Below, piece after piece: positions 3,205 to 29,134 of a DNA stretch of 36,800 nucleotides. This stretch comes from an uncultured Alphaproteobacteria bacterium. GTDB taxonomy: Bacteria > Pseudomonadota > Alphaproteobacteria > Rs-D84 > CASDRH01. The position numbers and the translations under genes are program-made. A model generated the notes under the pieces. That model had not been told where the DNA came from. It did not search any database and saw nothing but the letters and a program-made list of their open reading frames with translations. Within the stretch, counting starts at the first letter, position 1, and every line of letters begins with the position of its first letter. The DNA lies in assembly GCA_963541805.1 (NCBI GenBank), contig CAUTVF010000002.1, positions 1-36,800 of the forward strand. The letters run 5' to 3'.

Positions 3205-4079
3205 AAAAAGCTTCTTTTAAATTCAGCATAGCACAGCAAATTACATTTACTCGTGTCACACGCAATTTTGTTTCTTGCTGAAATTTTGTATTTATAATCA
3301 GTATTTAAATCAGCTAAAACCGTAAAATCCTTACAAGACCAAAATAATTGTAATTTTTCGTCAATATCAAATCCATCTGGCTCGCAAATACATTTTTTAC
3401 CTTGGAGATTTAATAATTTTTTAATATATTCGGATTGCGAAACTAATTTTGAATTTATATAAAATTCATCAACATTCAAATTTCTTTTAACTCTATCCAT
3501 ACTAAAATTTTCAAATATAAAATTCATAACTTCCTTATATTTTTCAGTTCCAACAAGTTGGGACAGTGGAGAAATATTTAATTCACCATTTATTAATTTT
3601 GCAATTTGTTTATATTGATCTAAATATGGAATAATATTTTCAATCCTATCAATTGGTAAATTCATATTTACAACACCGTCCCACGAATTTAAAAAATTAA
3701 ACGTCTTTTCAAAATTAAAATATTTAATATGAGGACTAATCGTTACAATTATTTTTGGATTTTTAATTATTTTTTCTAAGTTTGATGTATTTGTAATAAT
3801 TTCGACGACTTTAATATTATCGACTTCGCAAAGTCTTTGGAGTTCCAAATCAAAATCTTTTATTAATGTTGGCTCTCCGCCAAGAATTGCAATAAGAAAA
3901 GTGAATTCGGAATTAAATTTTACAAAATCAATTATTCTATCGAAATAATAATGAGTATCAAAATATTTTTTATTCAATCTTGATTTCGCAAAACAATATG
4001 AACAATTATAATTACAAAACATACTAGGATATATGTCAAGTGAAAAATCAATCGGATTTTTTGCTTCAAATACTGTCAT
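3198..4079 (-). CDS. radical SAM protein with Cys-rich C-terminal (SPASM/twitch-like) extension
   Basis: CNYNCSYC motif and GGEPTL motif. The C-terminus carries seven Cys (KKCICEP, WSCKD, CDTSKCNLLC). The start overlaps the polB-N stop (ATGA). Confidence 0.85.
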   Translation of the reverse strand: MTVFEAKNPIDFSLDIYPSMFCNYNCSYCFAKSRLNKKYFDTHYYFDRIIDFVKFNSEFTFLIAILGGEPTLIKDFDLELQRLCEVDNIKVVEIITNTSNLEKIIKNPKIIVTISPHIKYFNFEKTFNFLNSWDGVVNMNLPIDRIENIIPYLDQYKQIAKLINGELNISPLSQLVGTEKYKEVMNFIFENFSMDRVKRNLNVDEFYINSKLVSQSEYIKKLLNLQGKKCICEPDGFDIDEKLQLFWSCKDFTVLADLNTDYKYKISARNKIACDTSKCNLLCYAEFKRSFLC

Positions 4080-5695
4080 ATAAGTTTTCTAGATTCCAAT
4101 TCTTTTTTAATTTCTGCCGCTTTATTGCGATGTCCAAGCATTTTCAATTTATATCTTTTTCTATTGTTGAAACCGGCTTCAATTAATTCTGGAATAATAC
4201 CTTTTTTTGATTTATCAAAATGTGTTCCAAATAGCGATCCGCATAAATTATACTTTTGCAGCAATTTCGAATATTTATCAAATCTATGAGTATCCTTGAA
4301 ATATTCATTAATGTGATATAATTCGTCTTCGCTTAAATTTAGATTTTGGATTTCCAATTGCAAATCTTTTGGCAAATCTTTGAATTCCACTAATGTTTCT
4401 GGACTAATATTAAATGCCATAATTTGAGATGGATACATACTATTGACATCAAGAGAAAAGCCATAATTACATTTTCCTTTTATTGGATCCATTACAAATC
4501 CGCCTTTTAATTGAATACCAGAAGTATCCTCTGCCTTCATATCATACGATGGTAATATTTGTTTTTTGAGATACGCAGAATTGGCAATATATTGAGCCCA
4601 CGGCATAACAGTTTTTACAGTATCTTTAATATTAACTCCGTAAATTTCTGCCATATTTGTCATTGTATTAAAAATACTCAATTTTAATTCTATTTTATTT
4701 AATATATATACATCAATAATTGCGTAATGAATAAACCATTTATTGCATATTTTAGATATTTCAGCTTCTGATTTTGCATTATATAATTCAAGTTCAAAAG
4801 CTCCCGTTGGCTTAGAATCTGGTCTAATATATCCAGAACCTGTTCGAAATCCGTCGAAAGTTTTGAAACAGTCGTGATTTACTTTTTTAAGTCCGACCTC
4901 GACTTCTGCAATATTGTCGAGAGAATACGAACTTTTTGGCTCAAAATTAAAGTTTTTATAAACTTTCATATAATCAATATACGAAATACCTGGTGAATCA
5001 ACTTCAAAAATTCCTTGATTTAAAACTAATTCATTTAATTTTGATTCTCCATAAGGACTAAAATTAAGTGGAATTCCAAGTTTTGTTGCTCTTGCAAATA
5101 GATATCCGAAGTCAAACCCTTCTCCGTTATATGCAGAAATTATAGCTGGATTTAATGTTTTTATTAGCTTAAAAAATGCAAGAATTAATTCGGCTTCTGA
5201 ATTTAATTTAAAATATTTTAATTTAAAATCAAATACTTCTCCATTAAATGTATAATTACCAGATTCGGATTCCGTATAATCAATTCCTTTGATAAAATCA
5301 GTTAAACTAAAAACAATTACAGTATTTGTTTTTGAATCATAAATCTGGATACATACAATAGTTTCAGGGAATGATTTAGTATCGACGGATCTTTTTGCGG
5401 TTGTTTCAATATCAAGAAACCAATATCTTGGAGATTTGTTATAATTTTTTTGCCAATAAAAATCGCGAATATAACAAAGATCCGGTTTATAATTACCATA
5501 AACTGGTAAATCAGTTTTTTTAGTAATGCGTCGAAGTTTAATTTCAGGATTTAAAAAATATGTAAAATCACCTGAAATGTCCTCAACATACCGTTCATTA
5601 AAGCTTGGAATTTTCTTTATTTTTGATTGATTTCCGTCAAAATATCTTATATAATAATCATAACCAATTCTAAAACTATTTTCAAATGCTTCCAT
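4076..5695 (-). CDS. gp43: family-B DNA polymerase, N-terminal fragment (3'-5' exonuclease domain, motif A, first half of fingers)
   Basis: ExoI FLDIETT, ExoII YNGEGFDFGYL, ExoIII YAIIDVY and Pol motif A LDVNSMYPSQI are present. The ORF ends before motif B. Confidence 0.9.
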   Translation of the reverse strand: MEAFENSFRIGYDYYIRYFDGNQSKIKKIPSFNERYVEDISGDFTYFLNPEIKLRRITKKTDLPVYGNYKPDLCYIRDFYWQKNYNKSPRYWFLDIETTAKRSVDTKSFPETIVCIQIYDSKTNTVIVFSLTDFIKGIDYTESESGNYTFNGEVFDFKLKYFKLNSEAELILAFFKLIKTLNPAIISAYNGEGFDFGYLFARATKLGIPLNFSPYGESKLNELVLNQGIFEVDSPGISYIDYMKVYKNFNFEPKSSYSLDNIAEVEVGLKKVNHDCFKTFDGFRTGSGYIRPDSKPTGAFELELYNAKSEAEISKICNKWFIHYAIIDVYILNKIELKLSIFNTMTNMAEIYGVNIKDTVKTVMPWAQYIANSAYLKKQILPSYDMKAEDTSGIQLKGGFVMDPIKGKCNYGFSLDVNSMYPSQIMAFNISPETLVEFKDLPKDLQLEIQNLNLSEDELYHINEYFKDTHRFDKYSKLLQKYNLCGSLFGTHFDKSKKGIIPELIEAGFNNRKRYKLKMLGHRNKAAEIKKELESRKLI

Positions 5696-11090: not shown

Positions 11091-12146
11091 TTAATCAAAT
11101 GAAATATTGTTATAAATTTCGAATTTAAATCGAATTTTATATTTTGTCGGTAATTTGGAAGATTCAGATTCTCCAAGTTCTGGAACTTGTAAATTTAAAT
11201 CTAATTCAGGATTTATATCAAATCTTGCAACACTTAAAAAATCCAATTCAGAAATTGTTACTTTTAATAAGTCATTAAGTTTTAAAAAAATCGGATTTGA
11301 ATTAAAAATATATTTTGTATCTTTTAGTGCAAACGAATCTGGTAACTTTTTTAAATCAGTATGATAAATTTTTGAGCCATTAACACTATAATATAATGTA
11401 TATTCGGCATCAATTTCAATTGTAGATCCAGCCGGAATTTTATTCAAATCCGGATTTATTCGAAATCCATCGGAATCTAAAATTCTAACAATTTCATAAT
11501 TTGAGCTTTTTGAAAGTTTAAAAAATTGAGGCTCAAATACCGCAGTTTCATATAATTTTGGCATTTTAAATATTTCGGATGCAATTGGATCATCAATTCC
11601 AGAATCTGCATAAAATAGTTTTGTATAATCAGTATTTAATGTATCCGCATCCTCGATATCCGTATTCAAATCATTTATACTAATTGGGAATTCGCGAGAT
11701 TCAAAATCAACAGTATCAACATTTAAATCGTCTAATATTTTAAATTGATAAGTTTCATCGAGTTTAGTTGTATCAATAAAATTCTCAAATTTATCAACAG
11801 TGTCATAAATATCAACATATCCTGATTTCCATCCATAAATGCTTTGATAAAATCCTTGCTGAACAAATCCAAAACTATCATAAATTTTTGGAATATTATC
11901 ATTTAATGAAAATGTTATTAGATTTCCAAAGTTTTTATGAAGCTCTCCGTTAATTTCAAAAGTATCATAAATAAAAAGTCCAGAATTTCCAACATATTCA
12001 ACGGAACCGCTAAAATCTAAATTTCTGCCATTTACATTAAAATGTGAAACTACAGGATGATAGTAATGCGCGAATATTTTTTCGGATTCTAAATCTTTTG
12101 AATATTTCACATATCCAGAATTGCGAAACCAAGGATCAAAAGACAT
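11091..12146 (-). CDS. virion structural protein (baseplate/fibre operon), function unknown
   Basis: 351-aa ORF, last in the baseplate operon. Its frame stays open upstream for 41 codons to the TAG of the preceding ORF. Confidence 0.6.
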   Translation of the reverse strand: MSFDPWFRNSGYVKYSKDLESEKIFAHYYHPVVSHFNVNGRNLDFSGSVEYVGNSGLFIYDTFEINGELHKNFGNLITFSLNDNIPKIYDSFGFVQQGFYQSIYGWKSGYVDIYDTVDKFENFIDTTKLDETYQFKILDDLNVDTVDFESREFPISINDLNTDIEDADTLNTDYTKLFYADSGIDDPIASEIFKMPKLYETAVFEPQFFKLSKSSNYEIVRILDSDGFRINPDLNKIPAGSTIEIDAEYTLYYSVNGSKIYHTDLKKLPDSFALKDTKYIFNSNPIFLKLNDLLKVTISELDFLSVARFDINPELDLNLQVPELGESESSKLPTKYKIRFKFEIYNNISFD

Positions 12147-12269: not shown

Positions 12270-13832
12270 CTATGAATCTCTTGTTGATTTACTATCAAAA
12301 TAGATATCCGGTCTAAAAGTAATCGATTCCATTAATAAATTATTAGAATCTCTTAATTCTATTGTATGATCTGCTGCGTCCAATTTTGGTATTTTAAATT
12401 TACCTGATTTAAATTGAGCTTCTGAAATTTCAAATGTATTTGAATCAATACTTAAGAAAAATGGGAATGTATCCGATTTTTCAATATTTGGAACATAAAA
12501 ATATACGTAATTTTTTAAAATCCTATCAAATATTGGCCTTATTTTATTTCTCGAAAGTCTATAAAGTGCTTTAAAATCAGACGGCTTTAGAGATCCGTTA
12601 ACAACTCGAGTTCCATATGAAACATCAGCAGTCGGGAGTCTATCCATTCCGAGTTTCCAATTTTTTGATCCTACAAAAACATTACCTGCGCCAACAACTA
12701 TTTTATTACCTGCAGTTTCTGCAAGACCAAAATCAAATTGAAATGATACTAAATCTTTTACTGATGTAACAATTTTAGAAGTATATGCAAGCTCAATTGC
12801 GCAATGTTTTGATTCAACTGGATATATTTTCTTTTCTTTAAATGGCTTTGAAGTTCCTAAAGGATAATAAAGAATTAAAGATCTTGGCTTTGAGATTTGA
12901 ACTAATCTTTCTCCGGATTCAAATTCAATTGTCAATGTTTTAACACCTTTTGATTCAACTTTATCAATTGATTTTATTGTATTATTAATGACTAATTTTA
13001 AATCTTCAAAATCCTCAAAAATACTATAAAATTTTCCAAATCTGGTAACATCCTTTTTAATTTTTGAATCGCAAACTATTTTAAGGGATTTTTTATTGTT
13101 ATATAATGTTTCATTTTTAAGACCAGTTTGAAATAAAAATCCAGTATTTGCTTTAAAGTCATCGGTAATGCCAGAATCACAAACAATTCTAAATGTTGTA
13201 ATATCAAATATTTCTTTGCTTAAAAAATAGTCTTTCCATCGAAGCTCATAAATTCTAAAATATATGTAAGCCCATCCAACTGGATGGGACAAAACTTTTA
13301 CGTAACTTTCAAAAATCTCTGGAAGCATTTCGCCTTCGACGATATATTCCAAAACATTTGGGCCTTCGTATATTTTGAATGCATCCGAGGTTTCAAGAAC
13401 TCCTTGTTCTAATGAAAATTTATTAATCAAATGATATATATATTCAATTGAATTAAATGTTCCTTTAGTTTGTCCGAATATTTTCCAAGTTTGGAGCATT
13501 TCTGAATTTAAATAATCAATTACATTGATATCAATTACTAAATCTTGCCATTTTTCATATTTTACGTGCTTATGATATTCTTTTAAAATATCAAGCAATT
13601 TATGATTGTTATTATTATCAGTTATGCACTTGTAAAAATCTGCAGCATATGTTTTTATAATTTCCTCATAAAGAACTGGATTTCCTGAATCAAATAATGC
13701 TTTAATATCAACGGAGACTTTTGAATGTTTCCAAATAAAATCAACGAAAACATCCATTGTATCCTTTATAAGTTTTATATTTTTAAAATTTTCTGGAATT
13801 ATTGCTTTTATTGCTGCTTTTGAATATGCCAT
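12270..13832 (-). CDS. virion structural protein (baseplate wedge operon), function unknown
   Basis: 520-aa ORF immediately downstream of the gp6-like gene. Ends in the rare stop TAG. Confidence 0.6.
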   Translation of the reverse strand: MAYSKAAIKAIIPENFKNIKLIKDTMDVFVDFIWKHSKVSVDIKALFDSGNPVLYEEIIKTYAADFYKCITDNNNNHKLLDILKEYHKHVKYEKWQDLVIDINVIDYLNSEMLQTWKIFGQTKGTFNSIEYIYHLINKFSLEQGVLETSDAFKIYEGPNVLEYIVEGEMLPEIFESYVKVLSHPVGWAYIYFRIYELRWKDYFLSKEIFDITTFRIVCDSGITDDFKANTGFLFQTGLKNETLYNNKKSLKIVCDSKIKKDVTRFGKFYSIFEDFEDLKLVINNTIKSIDKVESKGVKTLTIEFESGERLVQISKPRSLILYYPLGTSKPFKEKKIYPVESKHCAIELAYTSKIVTSVKDLVSFQFDFGLAETAGNKIVVGAGNVFVGSKNWKLGMDRLPTADVSYGTRVVNGSLKPSDFKALYRLSRNKIRPIFDRILKNYVYFYVPNIEKSDTFPFFLSIDSNTFEISEAQFKSGKFKIPKLDAADHTIELRDSNNLLMESITFRPDIYFDSKSTRDS

Positions 13833-19205: not shown

Positions 19206-20192
19206 ATGTCAAATAAATCAGAATCTCAATTTCATCCATCCGGTCGATTGCTTCGCGGATTTGTTGTCGCAAATAATGATCCAAAGCATCAAGGCAGAGT
19301 CCAAGTCAGAATCCCAGAGCTCCACGGATTTGATTCAAATGCTTTAAATTCAGAAACTCAAGGAAATTCTACTGGTAATTATAAAGTTTTTGAAACTGAT
19401 TCAACAAATTCAAATTCAAACAAATCAGATTTCATAGAAACAGCAAATTTGCCGTGGGCACAAGTTCTGATGCCAATGGACTTTATTGGATTTCAAAAAG
19501 CTCCACAAGACGCAAAAGAAATTAAATCAGAAAAATTATCAGGAACTGAAAAAAATACTGAATTATATAGATCAATTTCGAGAGAGGGTGAAAGACGAGG
19601 GGGTTTTGGTAAGAATATTGTTTTAAATCCCGGAACATATGTTTGGATTCAGCAACTCGGAGGATCTGATAATGATTTGCTAGTTCTTGGAACATATGCA
19701 TCAGAAAATGAATTCTCAAATCTCACAAAACCAACCGGAGAAAATCCATCAAATAGCTGTGTCTATGATTCAATAACTGGTCATTATTATACTTTTGATG
19801 ACGCAACTGGAGATATCTTAATCCACAATAGATCGGGAACTCAATTCAGATGGGATTCAAACGGCAATTCATATAATGATGTTGTTGCAAATAAAAATAC
19901 TTCGGTTCAGGGCAACGAGATTTATCACATTGATGGATCAAATACTTTTAGAATCGGATCAACAAATACTGGCCTCGTTGAGGCAGATCAAAATATTACA
20001 GTAAAAGCAAATGATACTTTAAATGTTGAAAGCAATCAAAACGTTACAATTAAAGGCAATAAAACTGATAAAATATCCGGGAGTGAGAATATTGAAGTTT
20101 CTGGATCTACTACAATAAAAACGGGAGGTTCCCGAAATGATAATACTTCAGGAACCCATAAAATAACCGCTTCTGTGATTTATTTAAATTAA
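19206..20192 (+). CDS. baseplate central spike, gp5/VgrG-like (OB-fold N-domain plus C-terminal beta-helix, no lysozyme domain seen)
   Basis: GFVVANNDPKHQGRVQVRIPELHG (gp5 OB-domain signature). The C-terminal repeats are beta-helix-like: VQGNEIYHIDGSNTFRIGS..ITVKANDTLNVESNQNVTIKGNKTDKISGSENIEVSGSTTIKTGG. Confidence 0.75.
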   Translation: MSNKSESQFHPSGRLLRGFVVANNDPKHQGRVQVRIPELHGFDSNALNSETQGNSTGNYKVFETDSTNSNSNKSDFIETANLPWAQVLMPMDFIGFQKAPQDAKEIKSEKLSGTEKNTELYRSISREGERRGGFGKNIVLNPGTYVWIQQLGGSDNDLLVLGTYASENEFSNLTKPTGENPSNSCVYDSITGHYYTFDDATGDILIHNRSGTQFRWDSNGNSYNDVVANKNTSVQGNEIYHIDGSNTFRIGSTNTGLVEADQNITVKANDTLNVESNQNVTIKGNKTDKISGSENIEVSGSTTIKTGGSRNDNTSGTHKITASVIYLN

Positions 20193-21616: not shown

Positions 21617-21643
21617 AAACTCCCTTTAAAATCAAGGGAGTTT
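21617..21643 (-). terminator. rho-independent terminator after the tail sheath gene
   Basis: Minus-sense sequence: AAACTCCCTT-gatttta-AAGGGAGTTT followed by TTTAATATT. 10-bp stem with GC pairs, immediately after stop 21651. Confidence 0.7.
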
Positions 21644-21650
21644 ATAGAAG

Positions 21651-23462
21651 TTATTTTGAAGTAGTTACTTCGAAGTTGTTTGTTCCAAAGTTTGTAAATC
21701 TTAAGTGGATAAACTCAGCTACATAAGTTGGCTGAATAAAGATATCACAAACAAGCCAGTTAGTTGCAATAATTTGCGGAGTATTATTAGTTTCATCACA
21801 AATAATTTGATAGTTTTGAATTCCTCGGCCAGCTTTAATTTCTGCTAAAAACGGTTTAATAGTAGAAACAAGTTGATTTCGAGTAAAACTATCATTAAAT
21901 TCGAATAAACTATATTTACTCATATTACCCAAACTTCGCTCTAAGTGATTAAACAACGAAACGACGTTAATTCTATCAAAACTCGAAGCTTTGGTCTGAG
22001 CAGTTTTTTGTCCCCATATTACGGCACCAGTATTTGGGAATATAACAATTGGGTTTACACCATTTTTATATAGTGTGTCTCTCATTGCATTAGTTGGACT
22101 ATATGCAAGTTTTGAGCAATTTTTAATATTTCCTCTATTTAGACCTGCCGGAGCATACCAGTTTGCATAATCCTGATTAGTTTGCGCTTTAATTCCAGCA
22201 ACATCGCCCGCAAGATTTAGCCATTTATAAGTTCCAAGTTTTGCACAATATTGATATTTGTAGTTATTATAAAGCGCTATATACTTAGAATCAACATTTA
22301 GACTTCGTCTCCATTTGATTGTATTTTCATTTGCAATCGATGATTTGAAGCCAACGGAATTTGATTTCGGCGCGCCAACATAAGCGATGCAATCTTTTCG
22401 GTGAAGTGCTAAATTAATAGCAGCAGCTGGATGAAGCTCATTTGCAATAATGATATCGACATCGATTTCCTCTTTATTATCAAATATTGAATATGCGTCT
22501 TCAATATCGTCTTTTTGAGGATTTGATAGCGTTCCGTTTGTTAATTTAACAATACCATTATCGAATTCGCCAACAACATAATTATTATTGCTATCAAGAG
22601 TCAACAAACAGCTTGTGATTGTATCCTCAAGATTTTTATTAACATTGACTAAAATATAATCAGATTTTTGATTAATTGCAGTTTCGATATAAATAAATTC
22701 ATTTTTATCATTTTTTGCAAGTTCATCAAAACTAACAATAAATTGCTCAACAATTTGATTTTTAAACATTACAATAACTGCAAATTGTTTTCCGTATGGT
22801 AAATAATCAAATTGATTGTCTAGCGGAATTCCTGGTGCAATATATTTACCCTTATTGAAATCCTCAGGTTTTGCAATAGCAACATCAATTGCATTACCCC
22901 AGCTTCCTGGAGTCTTTGCAAAAAATTTAAGTTTTGCATCGCTATGAATAAACGGTTTTGAATCCTTAATTTCATCAAAAGCAGAATAATTAGGGATTGT
23001 ATGGTCGCCTTTTTCATAATCCAAGAAATTATACGCATCAAGCAATTTTTTATAGGATGCTTCAGCAGTTGCTGATTTAGTTGCATCAACGCGATAAATT
23101 GGCGCTTCTTTTGGAGCACTAATTAATTTTTCACTATCTTCAGTATTTTGATAAAAGATATTTGTATACGTAATTCCATTAATTACAACAACCTCGAGAC
23201 CAGTAATTCTAAATTTTGGAGCAGTATTATCATTTTCAAATGTAATTACATCGCCGATTTTTAGATTTTCATCGGATCCTTTTAGACTCGCTATATATGG
23301 AGAATTAGGTTGTTTTTTTCCTTCAATTTTATAAAAAAGAGAAGTTGAATCGACTAAAGTTGGTGACTTTGTTAGAGTCACCTTAGTCATTTCTTTTGTA
23401 ATTTTTTCCGGAATTGTATACGGTAATTTAGGAGTAGGCCCTAAATATGTTACAAAAGCCAT
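21651..23462 (-). CDS. gp18: tail sheath protein, main body (equivalent to T4 gp18 from about residue 95 to the C-terminus)
   Basis: Matches to T4 gp18 as I recall it: FFAKTPGSWGNAIDVAIAKP vs ALYPGELGDKIEIEIVSK; YKYQY; NPIVIFPNTGAVIWGQKTA; FDRINVVSLFNHLE; FEFNDSFTRN; ICDETNNTP. I use the internal ATG at 23462 (SD AAGGAA), not the overlapping 23561 start. Confidence 0.9.
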   Translation of the reverse strand: MAFVTYLGPTPKLPYTIPEKITKEMTKVTLTKSPTLVDSTSLFYKIEGKKQPNSPYIASLKGSDENLKIGDVITFENDNTAPKFRITGLEVVVINGITYTNIFYQNTEDSEKLISAPKEAPIYRVDATKSATAEASYKKLLDAYNFLDYEKGDHTIPNYSAFDEIKDSKPFIHSDAKLKFFAKTPGSWGNAIDVAIAKPEDFNKGKYIAPGIPLDNQFDYLPYGKQFAVIVMFKNQIVEQFIVSFDELAKNDKNEFIYIETAINQKSDYILVNVNKNLEDTITSCLLTLDSNNNYVVGEFDNGIVKLTNGTLSNPQKDDIEDAYSIFDNKEEIDVDIIIANELHPAAAINLALHRKDCIAYVGAPKSNSVGFKSSIANENTIKWRRSLNVDSKYIALYNNYKYQYCAKLGTYKWLNLAGDVAGIKAQTNQDYANWYAPAGLNRGNIKNCSKLAYSPTNAMRDTLYKNGVNPIVIFPNTGAVIWGQKTAQTKASSFDRINVVSLFNHLERSLGNMSKYSLFEFNDSFTRNQLVSTIKPFLAEIKAGRGIQNYQIICDETNNTPQIIATNWLVCDIFIQPTYVAEFIHLRFTNFGTNNFEVTTSK

Positions 23463-23463
23463 T

Positions 23464-23805
23464 TTAAATTCCTTGTTTAATTTCAAAATATAAAGGAACA
23501 TCGACTTCTGAATCTTCGTATCCTTTACTTGAAAGTTTAAGTGTAATGTTGACAGAATCAATTATTCCAATTTCTGGCTCTCCCGGAATTTTTTTAACTC
23601 TAATTTCTAGACAAAGTTCATCAGTTGAAAATTCCTCATTTTTTACAATGGTAAACCATTTTTTTGATTCAGCCTCAACAAAATCAACGTTGATATATTC
23701 CGGTCTTTTATTCTCTAATTTACATTTAAGAAAAAGTAAATCTCCAAATCGAACGGATGATTCGCCAAGATTAAATTCTAAATAAACACCGGGAGCAGAA
23801 GGCAT
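23464..23805 (-). CDS. small Ig-like-domain protein with a sheath-type N-terminal PGVY motif
   Basis: Begins MPSAPGVYLEF. Its C-terminal block TLKLSSKGYEDSEVDVPLYFEI is shared with 23817-24119 and with domains of the 535-aa ORF. Has its own SD, AAGGA. Confidence 0.55.
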   Translation of the reverse strand: MPSAPGVYLEFNLGESSVRFGDLLFLKCKLENKRPEYINVDFVEAESKKWFTIVKNEEFSTDELCLEIRVKKIPGEPEIGIIDSVNITLKLSSKGYEDSEVDVPLYFEIKQGI

Positions 23806-23816
23806 AATTAAAATCC

Positions 23817-24119
23817 TTACTCGACAACAGTTAGTTCAAGAGTTTTTACAATCTCGGACTTCTCATAACCATCCGCAGATACCTCAAATGTTAATTTGTT
23901 GTCATTTGCGTGATTAAATGCAGTATAGTGGCCTGGAGTTCCAAGAAGCTCAAACTTTAGAACAATATTATCAGCTGTTGAGCTAGCATCCTTTGAAATT
24001 TTTAGCAAAGTATCAATATTTGAACCTTTGTATTCAACTTTTGCATTTGCTGGAACTTTATCAGAAACTGCACATTTCAACTTATCTCCGTGTCTTAGAT
24101 CAAACTTATAGTCTGCCAT
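23817..24119 (-). CDS. small Ig-like-domain protein
   Basis: The block TFEVSADGYEKSEIVKTLELTV parallels the domain ends of neighbouring ORFs. TAATG coupling to the upstream gene; own SD AAAGGA. Confidence 0.55.
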   Translation of the reverse strand: MADYKFDLRHGDKLKCAVSDKVPANAKVEYKGSNIDTLLKISKDASSTADNIVLKFELLGTPGHYTAFNHANDNKLTFEVSADGYEKSEIVKTLELTVVE

Positions 24120-25726
24120 TATGAATCCTTTTTAATTGTTATTTTTGCGGTTGCTTTATTTGGGATCTTCGATAGATCAACTTTTGCTGTTGCTTTGTTT
24201 ATTTTTTCAATATTTACATTCGCAGTTGCTTTATTTAGAACTTTAGAAATCTCGATATTTGCACTAGCTGGAGGAGTAAATAATTCTAATTTAACTTTTG
24301 CTGAAGCTTTTTTAATTGCAGAAATCTCGATATTTGCGGTTGCTTTTTTAGCTTCTTTTGTTATATCAATTTTAGCAGTTGCTTTATTTGGAACTTTAGA
24401 AATTTCGATATTTGCAGTTGCTTTTTCAAGTTTCTTTTCTTTAATTACAATTGTATTAGTTACTTCAGTTGGTGAATACCCGTCTTTAGAAATTGTAATT
24501 TTTATTTTCGAAACTCCAACTTTTTTACCAGTAATTCGTTTATTTACTGTGTCAACTTCAATATTTTCAGAACCTTCAATTACTTCTACTTTTGCAATTG
24601 CGTCTGCCGGAGTATATTCAAGTGTAAAATCTTTGAATTCATCGACTTTAATTTCAGATGGAATTACAATATTTGAATTAATTACTGGTAAACTATGAAT
24701 TTCTAAATCTTTTGAAACTGTATTTGGTCGGTATCCAGATTTTTTAGCAGTTACAAGTAAATTAGAAATACCAACTCGGCTTGGAGTTATAGTTCCTTTA
24801 ACAAATTTACCATCTTCTTTGCTAGTTATAACAAATCCAAGAGTATTTGTAGAATCAGTTACTGTTATTTCACCTGAACTAAAAATTGCTACATTATATG
24901 TTTTACCAATTTGTAAATTAGACTCGTTTTCCACAGTTGCTGATAAATCAACAGTTTCAATATCAGCAATTTTAAATTCTGTTGTAAAAACAGAAGTTCT
25001 AAAATTGTCTGCAGAAGCTTCAAATGTTAATTTTACAGAATCTGTTGGCTTAATAAGCTCAATTGCTTTTGAATTTGGATATAGTGTTACTGAATCATTG
25101 CTTGCAGAAACTGTTACCTTAATATCTTTTGGCGCTACAGGACTAATTTTATAAGTTAGCATATTGCCGACTTTAAAATTATTCTCAATTTCATCGCCTT
25201 CAATTTTAACAGTAAAATCAACTGCTGGAACATAATCAGGATTTGATTTTTCGACCATAACATTTGATACGTCGAGAACATCATAAGTTGTTGAGCCAGA
25301 AGTTGAAATAGAAATTACATCACCATTTTTAAACTTATCAGTCGGCTCAAAAAATAATGATGCTCCATTTGATTCAACATATTTAACATCTAATTTTGTT
25401 CTTGTATTATCAAGTTGGTGAACAGAATCCCAGAAAACCGGACTTATTGAAGTTAATGCACCATTTAAGTCGCCTGCGCGAGATACATATATTGCACCAG
25501 AATATTGCAAATAATTATAAACTTGATACCAGTCGTTATAATTATCTTTATTAGGGCCTCCGAAAATATCCTCAAGTTCTTGGGTCGTTGAAATTTTAGT
25601 CCAAGCACCTATTGCGCCTTTTTCGAAGTTTCCGGCAAATACAGCATCCGAATCGCCTGAGCTAACTGTTACTGGAGATTTATCAACTTCAGAAACGAGG
25701 ACACCGGGAGATAGGAGAGTTGCCAT
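24119..25726 (-). CDS. gp18: tail sheath N-terminal segment (gp18 residues ~1-95) fused to Ig-like domains and a C-terminal 8x peptide repeat
   Basis: MATLLSPGVLVSEVDKS...AVFAGNFEKG...ELEDIFGGP...NYLQYSGAIYVSRA is colinear with T4 gp18 MTLLSPGIELKETTVQS...ALAGKFQWG...NTFGQP...NFLQYGNDLRVVRA. Repeated domain ends follow: SGYRPNTVSKDLEI and DGYSPTEVTNTIVI. Confidence 0.75.
   Translation of the reverse strand: MATLLSPGVLVSEVDKSPVTVSSGDSDAVFAGNFEKGAIGAWTKISTTQELEDIFGGPNKDNYNDWYQVYNYLQYSGAIYVSRAGDLNGALTSISPVFWDSVHQLDNTRTKLDVKYVESNGASLFFEPTDKFKNGDVISISTSGSTTYDVLDVSNVMVEKSNPDYVPAVDFTVKIEGDEIENNFKVGNMLTYKISPVAPKDIKVTVSASNDSVTLYPNSKAIELIKPTDSVKLTFEASADNFRTSVFTTEFKIADIETVDLSATVENESNLQIGKTYNVAIFSSGEITVTDSTNTLGFVITSKEDGKFVKGTITPSRVGISNLLVTAKKSGYRPNTVSKDLEIHSLPVINSNIVIPSEIKVDEFKDFTLEYTPADAIAKVEVIEGSENIEVDTVNKRITGKKVGVSKIKITISKDGYSPTEVTNTIVIKEKKLEKATANIEISKVPNKATAKIDITKEAKKATANIEISAIKKASAKVKLELFTPPASANIEISKVLNKATANVNIEKINKATAKVDLSKIPNKATAKITIKKDS
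24122..24424 (-). repeat. in-frame tandem repeat encoding eight 12-14-aa units (consensus KATA[NK][IV][ED]I[ST]K[VI]PN) at the C-terminus of the 535-aa sheath-N ORF
   Basis: The eight units are KATANIEISKVPN, KATAKIDITKEAK, KATANIEISAIK, KASAKVKLELFTPP, ASANIEISKVLN, KATANVNIEKIN, KATAKVDLSKIPN and KATAKITIKKDS. The DNA units recur as agaaatytcgatatttgcrgttgcttt. Confidence 0.8.
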
Positions 25727-28075: not shown

Positions 28076-29134
28076 TTACCATAAATCCTCTAAATTATCA
28101 GTATTTGCTCTCAAATCATATCCAAGAGGCTCAATCATTAACTCAAGTGGAACTAAAAAGAATTTTTCAAAATTCAAATCGAAATCAATAAAATCTCTAA
28201 ATTGATTTGCAAATGTATCGGAATCAAACATAAAAATATTTGATTTAAGTGGATTTGGCTCTCTCAGATACAACATTTTATATTTTGATCCGAGTTCCAA
28301 TTTTTGAAATCTTTCGGGATTTGCATCAATATATTGATTTGTAACCAAGAAAGCTCTTGAATTAATTGGAATTGCCTTTGAAGTTTTTAAATCATAATTA
28401 TCTTTTGTTACACTGCTAACTTTTGCAATACTTGATAACGGTTGAGCCAAATAGATTTTTCTAACTTCTGCTAACCAATTTTTAATTGCATTTAAATCGG
28501 CTTTCATTAATATTTTTACAGCTTCTGAAAGATATTTTCTACAAAAACTCGGCGTCGAACTTCTAATAATATCGAGGCCGTGGACTTTTATTTTTGGCGG
28601 ATCATACCGAGTTCCTTCATCATCAAGCACTGCAATTGCATATCTTTTTTTAGCAACAAATATTGCATTTTCAAAAATTGCTTCGCGCTTTGTTACTAAT
28701 TTTCCTTTGCTAAATGCATTAAAAATATATTCAACAATTTCAGAACTTTTGTTAACAATTGGTTGAAATACACCCTCTACAATTTTATCAAGCGAATCAA
28801 CATTGTATTCAATTGGTAATTTTTTTGGGAATTCGAAATATCCGGAATCAGTATCAGCATATCGTCTATATCCATAATTCGGATTTTTGTCAATTTCTTT
28901 GCATTTTGAATCAATCAAATTTCCAAATAAATTGACATAAAACCGAGAATTGGAAGTTATTGCGCAAGCTATAATCATTTTATTAAGTAAAAATCCTGGA
29001 TTTGCAAGAGCACCATAAAGCGCATTAATCATAACTTTATATGCAAATTGCATATTATCATATGAGTCTGCAAGATCCAATTCTTGGTGATATAAATCAA
29101 GAAGTTCAGAATCTGAAAGTTCGTTTATTTCCAT
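28076..29134 (-). CDS. gp43: family-B DNA polymerase, C-terminal fragment (second half of fingers, palm motif C, thumb)
   Basis: Motif B KVMINALYGAL, motif C YADTDSGYF, and KKRYA. Confidence 0.9.
   Translation of the reverse strand: MEINELSDSELLDLYHQELDLADSYDNMQFAYKVMINALYGALANPGFLLNKMIIACAITSNSRFYVNLFGNLIDSKCKEIDKNPNYGYRRYADTDSGYFEFPKKLPIEYNVDSLDKIVEGVFQPIVNKSSEIVEYIFNAFSKGKLVTKREAIFENAIFVAKKRYAIAVLDDEGTRYDPPKIKVHGLDIIRSSTPSFCRKYLSEAVKILMKADLNAIKNWLAEVRKIYLAQPLSSIAKVSSVTKDNYDLKTSKAIPINSRAFLVTNQYIDANPERFQKLELGSKYKMLYLREPNPLKSNIFMFDSDTFANQFRDFIDFDLNFEKFFLVPLELMIEPLGYDLRANTDNLEDLW

Follow-up and report, generated by a model that had tools for sequence, protein, structure and literature searches.

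A tail sheath gene split within its outer domains, with a variable immunoglobulin-like cassette at the break, suggests a two-chain sheath protomer in a clade of T4-related phages

We analysed a 36.8-kb stretch of DNA (contig CAUTVF010000002.1 of assembly GCA_963541805.1, positions 1 to 36,800; ~27% G+C), referred to below as the window, in which a phage tail sheath gene related to T4 gp18 was found in two pieces on the minus strand. The upstream piece (24119-25726) encodes a protein of 535 amino acids (aa), here called the N-piece, and the downstream piece (21651-23462) encodes 603 aa beginning at the ATG of MAFVTY, here called the body. Two small open reading frames (ORFs), of 100 aa (23817-24119) and 113 aa (23464-23805), lie between them on the same strand. 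An earlier note, made from the letters of the window, had reported these four ORFs with good Shine-Dalgarno (SD) sequences and an eightfold peptide repeat, and all of this was confirmed: the coordinates and translations agreed, an AAGGA-type SD stands 5' of the ATG in each ORF (that of the N-piece at 25736-25732), and the repeat occupies residues 435-535 of the N-piece. The genes are closely packed. The start of the 100-aa ORF overlaps the N-piece stop in a TAATG, the 100- and 113-aa ORFs are 11 nt apart, and the 113-aa and body genes meet in a TAAAATG; such close spacing with one overlapping pair makes translational coupling likely. A terminator scan found an intrinsic terminator on the minus strand just 3' of the body stop (21617-21643, a 10-bp stem followed by a T tract) and none that was convincing on the same strand between the four ORFs, the only match being a weak 5-bp one inside the N-piece coding sequence. 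These results indicated that the four co-oriented genes are a single operon, co-transcribed and closed by the terminator at 21617-21643.

The sheath homology of the N-piece begins at its N-terminus. As the earlier note had claimed, the N-terminus of gp18 is found on the 535-aa ORF, whose residues 3-99 match T4 gp18 2-97 (phmmer against the PDB, E 5e-5) as well as the sheath of Klebsiella phage KP1 (E 1.3e-5), and the 'tail sheath' profile phrog_20545 matches the whole protein (E 1e-49, with profile positions 18-522 of 538 covered by residues 1-517). Four segments could be distinguished. The N-terminal module, codons 1-95 (25442-25726), is defined by the gp18 match. It is followed by the first outer (surface) sheath domain, codons 96-170 (25217-25441), which carries a conserved NPDY motif and was recognised by hhalign with unsplit homologues (N-piece 90-175 against residues 90-163, 95% probability, E 2.3e-8). 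Codons 172-429 (24440-25213) encode three tandem immunoglobulin (Ig)-like beta-sandwich domains, and codons 435-535 (24122-24424) the peptide repeat seen in the translation. The sheath part had been proposed to stop after about 95 aa and to give way to some 340 aa of Ig-like domains; the Ig-like domains are there, but sheath homology continues to residue ~165-170 and the Ig region is shorter, about 260 aa.

Structure prediction with AlphaFold2 (AF2) gave a mean confidence (predicted local distance difference test, pLDDT) of 64.9 for the whole N-piece, for which the alignment was shallow. The first outer domain modelled alone stayed below 50, and residues 85-167 were modelled as disordered. The three Ig-like domains (172-254, 261-344 and 350-429) reached pLDDT 80-94, and Foldseek matched this region to cadherin, titin and S-layer Ig arrays with E values of 1e-10 to 1e-8. 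By Pfam, no family, Big_2 (PF02368) included, was assigned to the N-piece of the window or to the small ORFs, and PF02368 appeared as a faint, precomputed or weak match in the relatives P0008, P0010 and CP220 gp052. The C-terminal repeat consists of eight copies of a 12-14-aa unit, KATA(N/K)(I/V)xIxK, which have diverged at the DNA level (Tandem Repeats Finder reported a period-39 array at 24320-24424), and AF2 modelled residues 435-535 as low-confidence strands. This repeat is absent from other N-pieces, except for one copy-like motif in P0002. We considered whether it could be an ancestral strand that completes an outer domain together with the body; its only BLAST match was to residues 128-170 of P0011, an unsplit metagenomic sheath protein, at E 0.26, and the idea was dropped, the C-termini of other N-pieces being unrelated. 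An internal duplication of outer domains (N-piece 96-170 against body 57-136) was likewise rejected, with an hhalign probability of 3%.

The rest of gp18 is located on the 603-aa ORF, which has no PGV-type N-terminus, just as the earlier note had described. Two Pfam families matched the body above their curated cut-offs, PF04984 Phage_sheath_1 (E 2.7e-16) and PF17482 Phage_sheath_1C (E 8.8e-11), the match to the 'tail sheath' profile phrog_23 begins only at profile position 100, and residues 300-594 correspond to T4 gp18 333-647 (phmmer against the PDB, E 1e-56). The body holds the remaining outer domains and the inner domain's second half, along with the C-terminal handshake domain. The AF2 model had a mean pLDDT of 81.9, with residues 1-52 below 50 and disordered, and Foldseek placed it closest to the sheath chains of KP1 and T4 (E 6e-33 to 1e-31, probability 1.00). 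Structure prediction of the two large ORFs, which had been recommended, returned in this way a sheath fold for the body and three Ig-like domains for the N-piece. The body by itself lacks the N-terminal arm and the first half of the inner domain, so that what defines a single-polypeptide sheath is found only in N-piece and body taken together, and the sequence evidence argues against a body that is complete with an N-terminal linker of its own. The predicted disorder of N-piece 85-167 and body 1-52 in isolation is compatible with folding on association, and the shallow alignment of the N-piece would explain it equally well.

The position of the break was examined against the nested domains of T4 gp18, in which domain IV comprises residues 1-24 and 510-659, domain III 24-87 and 346-510, domain II 88-97 and 189-345, and domain I 98-188, the last being outermost and free of inter-subunit contacts (PMC3004832, Leiman et al. 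2010). Since the N-piece corresponds to gp18 2-97, these limits indicate that the N-terminal arm lies on it, along with one half of the middle domain and the strand that opens domain II. All three are integral to the fold and no dispensable appendage. Unsplit relatives gave the same picture. In P0011 (726 aa, from a 178-kb contig), residues 1-127 align with N-piece 1-127 (46% identity, E 7e-32, BLASTP) and residues 146-724 with body 9-602 (48% identity), colinear and without overlap between the two matches. The compact sheath paralogue gp034 of Campylobacter phage CP220 behaves likewise, its residues 4-112 matching the N-piece and 111-507 the body. The break maps to residue ~145-165 of the unsplit protein, leaving one complete outer domain on the N-piece. 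It had been suggested that the break falls where the chain leaves the conserved inner domains for the outer ones; this holds on the T4 domain map, which places the break in the surface-exposed outer insertion domains. The accompanying claim that all four ORFs are in different frames was too broad, the frames being 1, 2, 0 and 2 so that only neighbours differ, and its conclusion stood: the alignments point to a clean gene fission and not to a frameshift.

We next compared the locus with L003, an independent assembly (Logan SRR31495384) that is 94.9% identical at the DNA level over 4198 bp, with 215 mismatches and a single gap. L003 keeps all four ORFs with identical starts, stops and lengths. 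Most of the codon differences were synonymous, with synonymous to non-synonymous counts of 70 to 9 in the N-piece, 9 to 2 in the 100-aa ORF, 12 to 8 in the 113-aa ORF and 84 to 9 in the body, and no amino-acid change was found in residues 1-113 of the N-piece. The predominance of synonymous changes suggests that all four genes are expressed and under purifying selection, the 113-aa protein being the least constrained. That the split is an error of sequencing or assembly, or a pseudogene in decay, is favoured only by the general frequency of frameshift errors; it has next to no chance in view of these data and is effectively excluded: the ORFs persist across 215 mismatches in 4198 bp, the protein clusters have 27 and 24 member sequences, and one fission point recurs in many lineages. 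That resequencing might merge the ORFs, named earlier as a way in which a split could dissolve, is contradicted directly by L003.

The spread of the split was then followed through relatives. By tblastn, the nearest cultured relatives are the Campylobacter phages of the genus Firehammervirus, CP220, CPt10, IBB_35 and CP21, with 62% identity in the body and 31% in the N-piece (the latter over 92% of the query against CP220, CPt10 and IBB_35). CP220 has the two genes side by side, as gp052 (annotated at 538 aa and giving Ig-like matches) and gp053 (578 aa). Unsplit gp18 proteins exist as well, which answers a comparison that had been called for: besides P0011, the sister genus Fletchervirus has a single gp18 of 636 aa in phage CPX. 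Among 120 listed body homologues, the LLSPGV N-terminus is missing from every protein of 577-621 aa, and these split bodies begin, among the matches listed, within ~25 residues of a common Y-x-(I/V)-P-E-F motif; the same start point was found in every split body examined, that of the window included. In a neighbour-joining tree of the common region, the split bodies, with those of CP220, CPt10 and IBB_35, grouped together as one clade in 92/100 bootstraps, and their sister group, in 100/100, was an unsplit clade of mostly 722-749 aa, CPX gp18 falling outside. An N-piece was present upstream at every locus for which upstream DNA was available (L003, L006, L007, L008, L011, L012, L015, L016 and CP220), and two sets of separate contigs, L005 with an N-piece and L013/L014 with a body, seem to belong to one and the same further split locus. 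A single fission event in the ancestor of the split clade is most simply suggested by these results. No close DNA relative of the window was found by megablast against 50,697 phage genomes, and a scan of IMG/VR found no relatives of the N-piece.

Two loci among the Campylobacter phages show further peculiarities. In CP220, gp052 and gp053 (L001 4369-5985 and 5989-7725) share a frame with only a stop codon and one codon between them; read-through would fuse them, and the arrangement is probably coincidental, other lineages being out of frame. In CP21 (L017 2066-7359) the body is interrupted again, into CP21_077 and CP21_076, followed by a 388-aa hypothetical protein (CP21_075) and CP21_074, a C-terminal sheath fragment of 145 aa, and the locus adjoins homing endonuclease genes. 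Truncated bodies of 445 aa that match CP21 (P0106-P0109) are common in Campylobacter coli assemblies. This second interruption could be an intron or a homing-endonuclease insertion.

Published virion analyses of the relatives bear on the products of the split genes. Timms et al. (2010; PMC2853527) excised and identified bands of CP220 virions at 64.2 kDa (CPT_0053), 58.4 kDa (CPT_0052) and 59.2 kDa (CPT_0034), masses that fit the separate ORFs. In our comparison CPT_0053 is the homologue of the body, CPT_0052 that of the N-piece and CPT_0034 the compact paralogue. Those authors read their result as 'at least two types of Gp18', perhaps mixed or marking sub-populations (PMC2853527). In IBB_35, which has the pair as genes 1-7 and 1-8 and also the compact paralogue, all three sheath-like proteins were identified by tandem mass spectrometry (MS/MS) (PMC3322345, Carvalho et al. 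2012), the N-piece being covered over 30.9% of its sequence, the body over 11.8% and the compact paralogue over 3.5%. Such coverage is a poor proxy for stoichiometry, which weakens its use in support of a two-chain subunit. An N-piece missing from virions, which would have spoken against a sheath role, is contradicted here through homologues only.

These data also bear on whether the pieces might be rejoined into a full-length sheath by frameshifting, read-through, an intron or an intein. Introns, inteins and homing endonucleases do occur in other genes of the relatives (PMC3322345), and the CP220 ORFs lie in frame, a stop and one codon apart. In the window, however, ~2.2 kb and two conserved ORFs in other frames separate the sheath parts; no Rfam family, introns included, and no tRNA was found in the 36.8 kb; no intein or other such domain was seen in a Pfam scan of the ORF proteins; the frames vary among lineages; and in CP220 and IBB_35 the virion proteins have the masses of separate ORFs. 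Recoding or splicing is thus very improbable and effectively excluded.

The compact paralogue of CP220 raises a second question. gp034 (L010 3936-5486), which adjoins an IS200/IS605 element, is a complete 516-aa protein with an N-terminus of its own and occurs in virions. The contractile sheath could be formed by such a gp034-like protein encoded elsewhere in the genome, with the split pair a diverging duplicate that makes a specialised ring or an outer layer. CP220 and IBB_35 do encode and package this complete copy, and by tblastn a second sheath-like locus was found only in the split-bearing Firehammervirus records, not in the unsplit Fletchervirus. Against it, gp034 is more diverged from T4 gp18 (24% identity, E 3e-4) than the body is (34%, E 1e-51) (PMC2853527), it had the lowest coverage by mass spectrometry, and the split body keeps a strongly conserved C-terminal handshake domain. 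No gp034-like paralogue was found inside the 36.8-kb window, most of the genome lying outside it. We regard a sheath built from the compact paralogue as quite improbable; given its greater divergence and lower coverage, a specialised role for it, with the split pair as bulk sheath, is favoured. We infer that two of the three 'Gp18 types' of Campylobacter phages are the halves of one subunit and that only one is a true paralogue.

A third possibility concerns the N-piece itself, which could be an accessory decoration that uses a relic sheath module as an anchor and is sub-stoichiometric or confined to special positions, the body polymerising alone without an N-terminal arm. The Ig array and the variable cassette described below do have the look of typical dispensable decoration, the body is modelled with confidence without a partner (pLDDT 81.9), and a survey of sheath proteins regards the outer domains of T4 as not essential for a sheath to form (PMC9230969). 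What the body would be missing, however, is no outer domain; it is the N-terminal arm and half of domain III. Solved sheaths retain the N-terminal handshake arm, and in type VI secretion systems (T6SS) it comes from TssB (PMC5807055). Moreover, the window's N-terminal module (1-95) and body share 64% and 62% identity with CP220-type proteins, compared with 31% for residues 96-170 and 21-22% for the Ig region. This indicates that the module is constrained as much as the body, and residues 1-95 are likewise unchanged against L003. The N-piece also had the highest coverage of the three IBB_35 sheath-like proteins. An accessory N-piece is therefore unlikely in our view.

Taken together, we favour the reading that the sheath protomer is an obligate two-chain unit that arose by an ancient gene fission, and put its probability at about 70%. 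Such a two-piece subunit, raised as conceivable in the earlier note, is backed by the colinear unsplit P0011, by the purifying selection seen against L003 and by the presence of both halves in CP220 and IBB_35 virions. Several points weigh against it. Co-folding of N-piece and body is read from homology, the disordered residues 1-52 of the body have no assigned role, and the virions analysed were those of relatives with 62% identity to the window in the body. In addition, Firehammervirus virions hold the complete compact paralogue gp034, so the split pair is not necessarily the sole former of the lattice.

In the proposed mechanism, N-piece and body would be made from one transcript and then co-fold into one protomer, presumably at 1:1 stoichiometry. 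Residues 1 to ~25 of the N-piece would act as the arm inserted into the inner-layer handshake sheet of a neighbour, residues ~25 to 95 would complete the middle-domain sheet of the body with its first beta-alpha-beta elements, and residues 96-170 would form an outer domain, the body supplying the rest of the protomer. The repeat tail would project outward from the sheath along with the three Ig-like domains, as suggested by a break that falls among the outer domains of gp18, and the two small ORFs would provide extra free-standing decoration modules of one fast-evolving cassette. By analogy with the Ig-like domains of other phages, a weakly adhesive role towards mucus or surface glycans is probable for the Ig array.

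Sheath subunits of phages and of extracellular contractile injection systems (eCIS) are usually single polypeptides, and the well-known two-chain protomer is that of the T6SS sheath. There, TssB contributes two of the seven strands of the middle sheet as well as the N-terminal handshake strand, and the chain is broken in the outer domain (PMC5807055). The TssB/TssC (VipA/VipB) pair is thus a two-polypeptide protomer broken in an outer inserted domain, as proposed for the pair in the window, and this comparison, like the mapping onto the T4 gp18 domains, is in line with two interlaced chains with the handshake strand on the N-piece. The two systems also differ. The T6SS outer domain is a helical module for ClpV recycling, whereas the break in the window bears beta-rich Ig-like decoration and nothing that suggests recycling, and the 535-aa N-piece is far larger than TssB. 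No T6SS family was found in either sheath protein (Pfam scan, E<=1), and the PDB matches of both by phmmer were phage and eCIS sheaths only. Given this lack of a T6SS family by sequence, the fission was probably independent and the resemblance convergent.

Compared with T4 gp18, CPX gp18 (636 aa) and P0011 (726 aa), the pair in the window has the same fold and the same nested order of domains, but those proteins are single polypeptides without an Ig-like array. The Firehammervirus pairs (CP220 CPT_0052/CPT_0053, CPt10, and IBB_35 1-7/1-8) share with the window the fission point, the gene order and the clade. In CP220 nothing lies between the two genes, while the window adds two small genes and the eightfold repeat, and the Ig regions are only ~21% identical. 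The papers on these phages describe 'multiple Gp18 types' and not a split protomer. A survey of 112 sheath proteins included one Fletchervirus, no Firehammervirus being noticed in its accessible text, and there cites the T6SS as an example of a two-protein sheath (PMC9230969). No description of a split phage sheath was found in the searchable literature, although subscription-only papers may contain one. What is already known is the 'tail sheath' annotation of these genes in relatives and the occurrence of both products in virions; what seems undescribed is the fission with its conserved break point, its likeness to TssB/TssC and the Ig cassette that varies at the break. The earlier view that the arrangement would be unusual held in so far as no published split phage sheath was found, but the split is common to a whole clade, including phages sequenced in 2010, and has a precedent in the T6SS.

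We then looked at what lies at the break in the different lineages. The order N-piece to body on one strand, as in the window, was accompanied by 0-3 intervening ORFs among the lineages sampled. The window and L003 share an N-piece of 535 aa, intervening ORFs of 100 and 113 aa, and a body of 603 aa. There are no intervening ORFs in CP220 (N-piece 538 aa, body 578 aa), L006 (742 and 578 aa) and L016 (340 and 594 aa). L007 and L008 have one of 360 aa (N-piece 442 aa, body 602 aa), L011 one of 495 aa (295 and 581 aa) and L015 one of 490 aa (299 and 587 aa), and the locus joined from the separate contigs L005 and L013/L014 has three, of 329, 258 and 195 aa (554 and 621 aa). The 360-aa ORF of L007 resembles the Ig region of the N-piece (E 3e-6), and the 490- and 495-aa ORFs are repetitive and look beta-rich when the sequence is inspected by eye. 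It appears from these comparisons that Ig-like modules are either fused to the N-piece or free-standing. The unsplit sister clade, of mostly 722-749 aa, is too short to contain an Ig array, so gain of the Ig cassette and fission seem to coincide. In L013 (621-2404), the intervening ORFs contain acidic low-complexity tandem repeats (PKQGDDTGGDDT in four copies, and GKDSGK runs) between beta-rich domains; these may serve as flexible linkers in surface decoration proteins.

The cassette resembles the Ig-like decoration of phage structural proteins (T4 Hoc type, Big_2), in that tandem, fast-evolving beta-sandwiches occur in variable number on a protein of the virion surface, the exposure in the window being predicted from the position of the break. 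It differs in that the Ig array of the window sits at an internal break of the sheath and not on a capsid protein or at a C-terminus reached by a frameshift, and in that the Ig-like modules of this clade are sometimes separate ORFs of 100-495 aa within the break.

The two small proteins of the window are paralogues (26% identity over 85 aa, E 7e-8). The 100-aa protein is probably a free-standing Ig-like domain, and the 113-aa protein consists of a domain of the same type with a 10-residue N-terminal extension, MPSAPGVYLEF. Both had been said to end in the Ig-like block. The C-terminal G-Y-E-x-S-E strand motif does recur in the strands that close the Ig domains of the N-piece, but the hhalign match covers only the last 25 columns, that is the last two strands, at 50% probability (E 1.6e-4), and an Ig-like nature of the small proteins is likely but not established. 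Each found only its own cluster, the 100-aa ORF in a word-indexed search of 5.8 billion proteins and the 113-aa ORF in a full HMMER scan of 1.84 billion representatives.

The extension of the 113-aa protein resembles sheath N-termini such as MADMLSPGVYLEE of P0117. At the DNA level, the 10-mer CTCCCGGTGT at 23786-23795 (minus strand), which encodes (A)PGV of the 113-aa protein, has a second copy at 25701-25710 encoding (S)PGV of the true sheath N-terminus. These are its only two occurrences in the window, even with one mismatch allowed, against an expectation of 0.05, and two were reached in 0/100 shuffles. This identity hints at a common origin of, or a common constraint on, the two N-termini. 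One could imagine the 113-aa protein replacing the N-piece at handshake or complementation sites and free Ig-like proteins docking by strand mimicry, giving a mosaic sheath whose surface could be re-tooled without altering the contractile core. We consider this a long shot, for which the PGVY motif and the repeated 10-mer are circumstantial evidence; the pairing of N-terminal strands in sheaths takes place within a closed ring (PMC5807055), so no obviously free acceptor is expected, which counts against the 113-aa protein as a donor.

Other genes in the window and its relatives also appeared divided or shortened. A family-B DNA polymerase lies in two ORFs ~22 kb apart, both on the minus strand (4076-5695 and 28076-29134). 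The 539-aa ORF corresponds to positions 82-499 and the 352-aa ORF to 504-850 of the 856 positions of phrog_262. The C-terminal half is upstream, and the ORF ends are too short for split-intein halves. In CP220 the polymerase gp43 is unsplit, with 882 aa (PMC2853527); in the phage of the window, gene fission may have happened a second time here. In L016 (5334-7511 and 8155-9066) the DNA polymerase is found in ORFs of 725 and 303 aa, both with weak Intein_splicing matches, and may be intein-associated or a split-intein case. Two further ORFs of the window, neighbours of 520 aa (12270-13832, minus strand) and 351 aa (11091-12146, minus strand), match positions 3-455 and 1237-1323 of phrog_35012 (1386 positions), a long family of unassigned function; what is a large protein in relatives may be shortened or split here. 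Finally, a gp5-like baseplate hub of 328 aa (19206-20192) is encoded on the plus strand, opposite to its neighbours; it matches the hub/lysozyme PHROG only centrally (328-476 of 868), and the lysozyme part seems to be absent.

That nature has split the protomer throughout a clade of T4-related phages shows which link of the nested-domain sheath fold is dispensable, and the break falls at a place topologically equivalent to that in the T6SS, probably as an independent parallel to TssB/TssC. The changing Ig cassette marks the break as a natural display site on the tail, which is of interest for the engineering of phages and contractile injection systems, and related phages can be cultured. For the Campylobacter phages, the two-chain reading would explain a 15-year-old puzzle of their proteomes.

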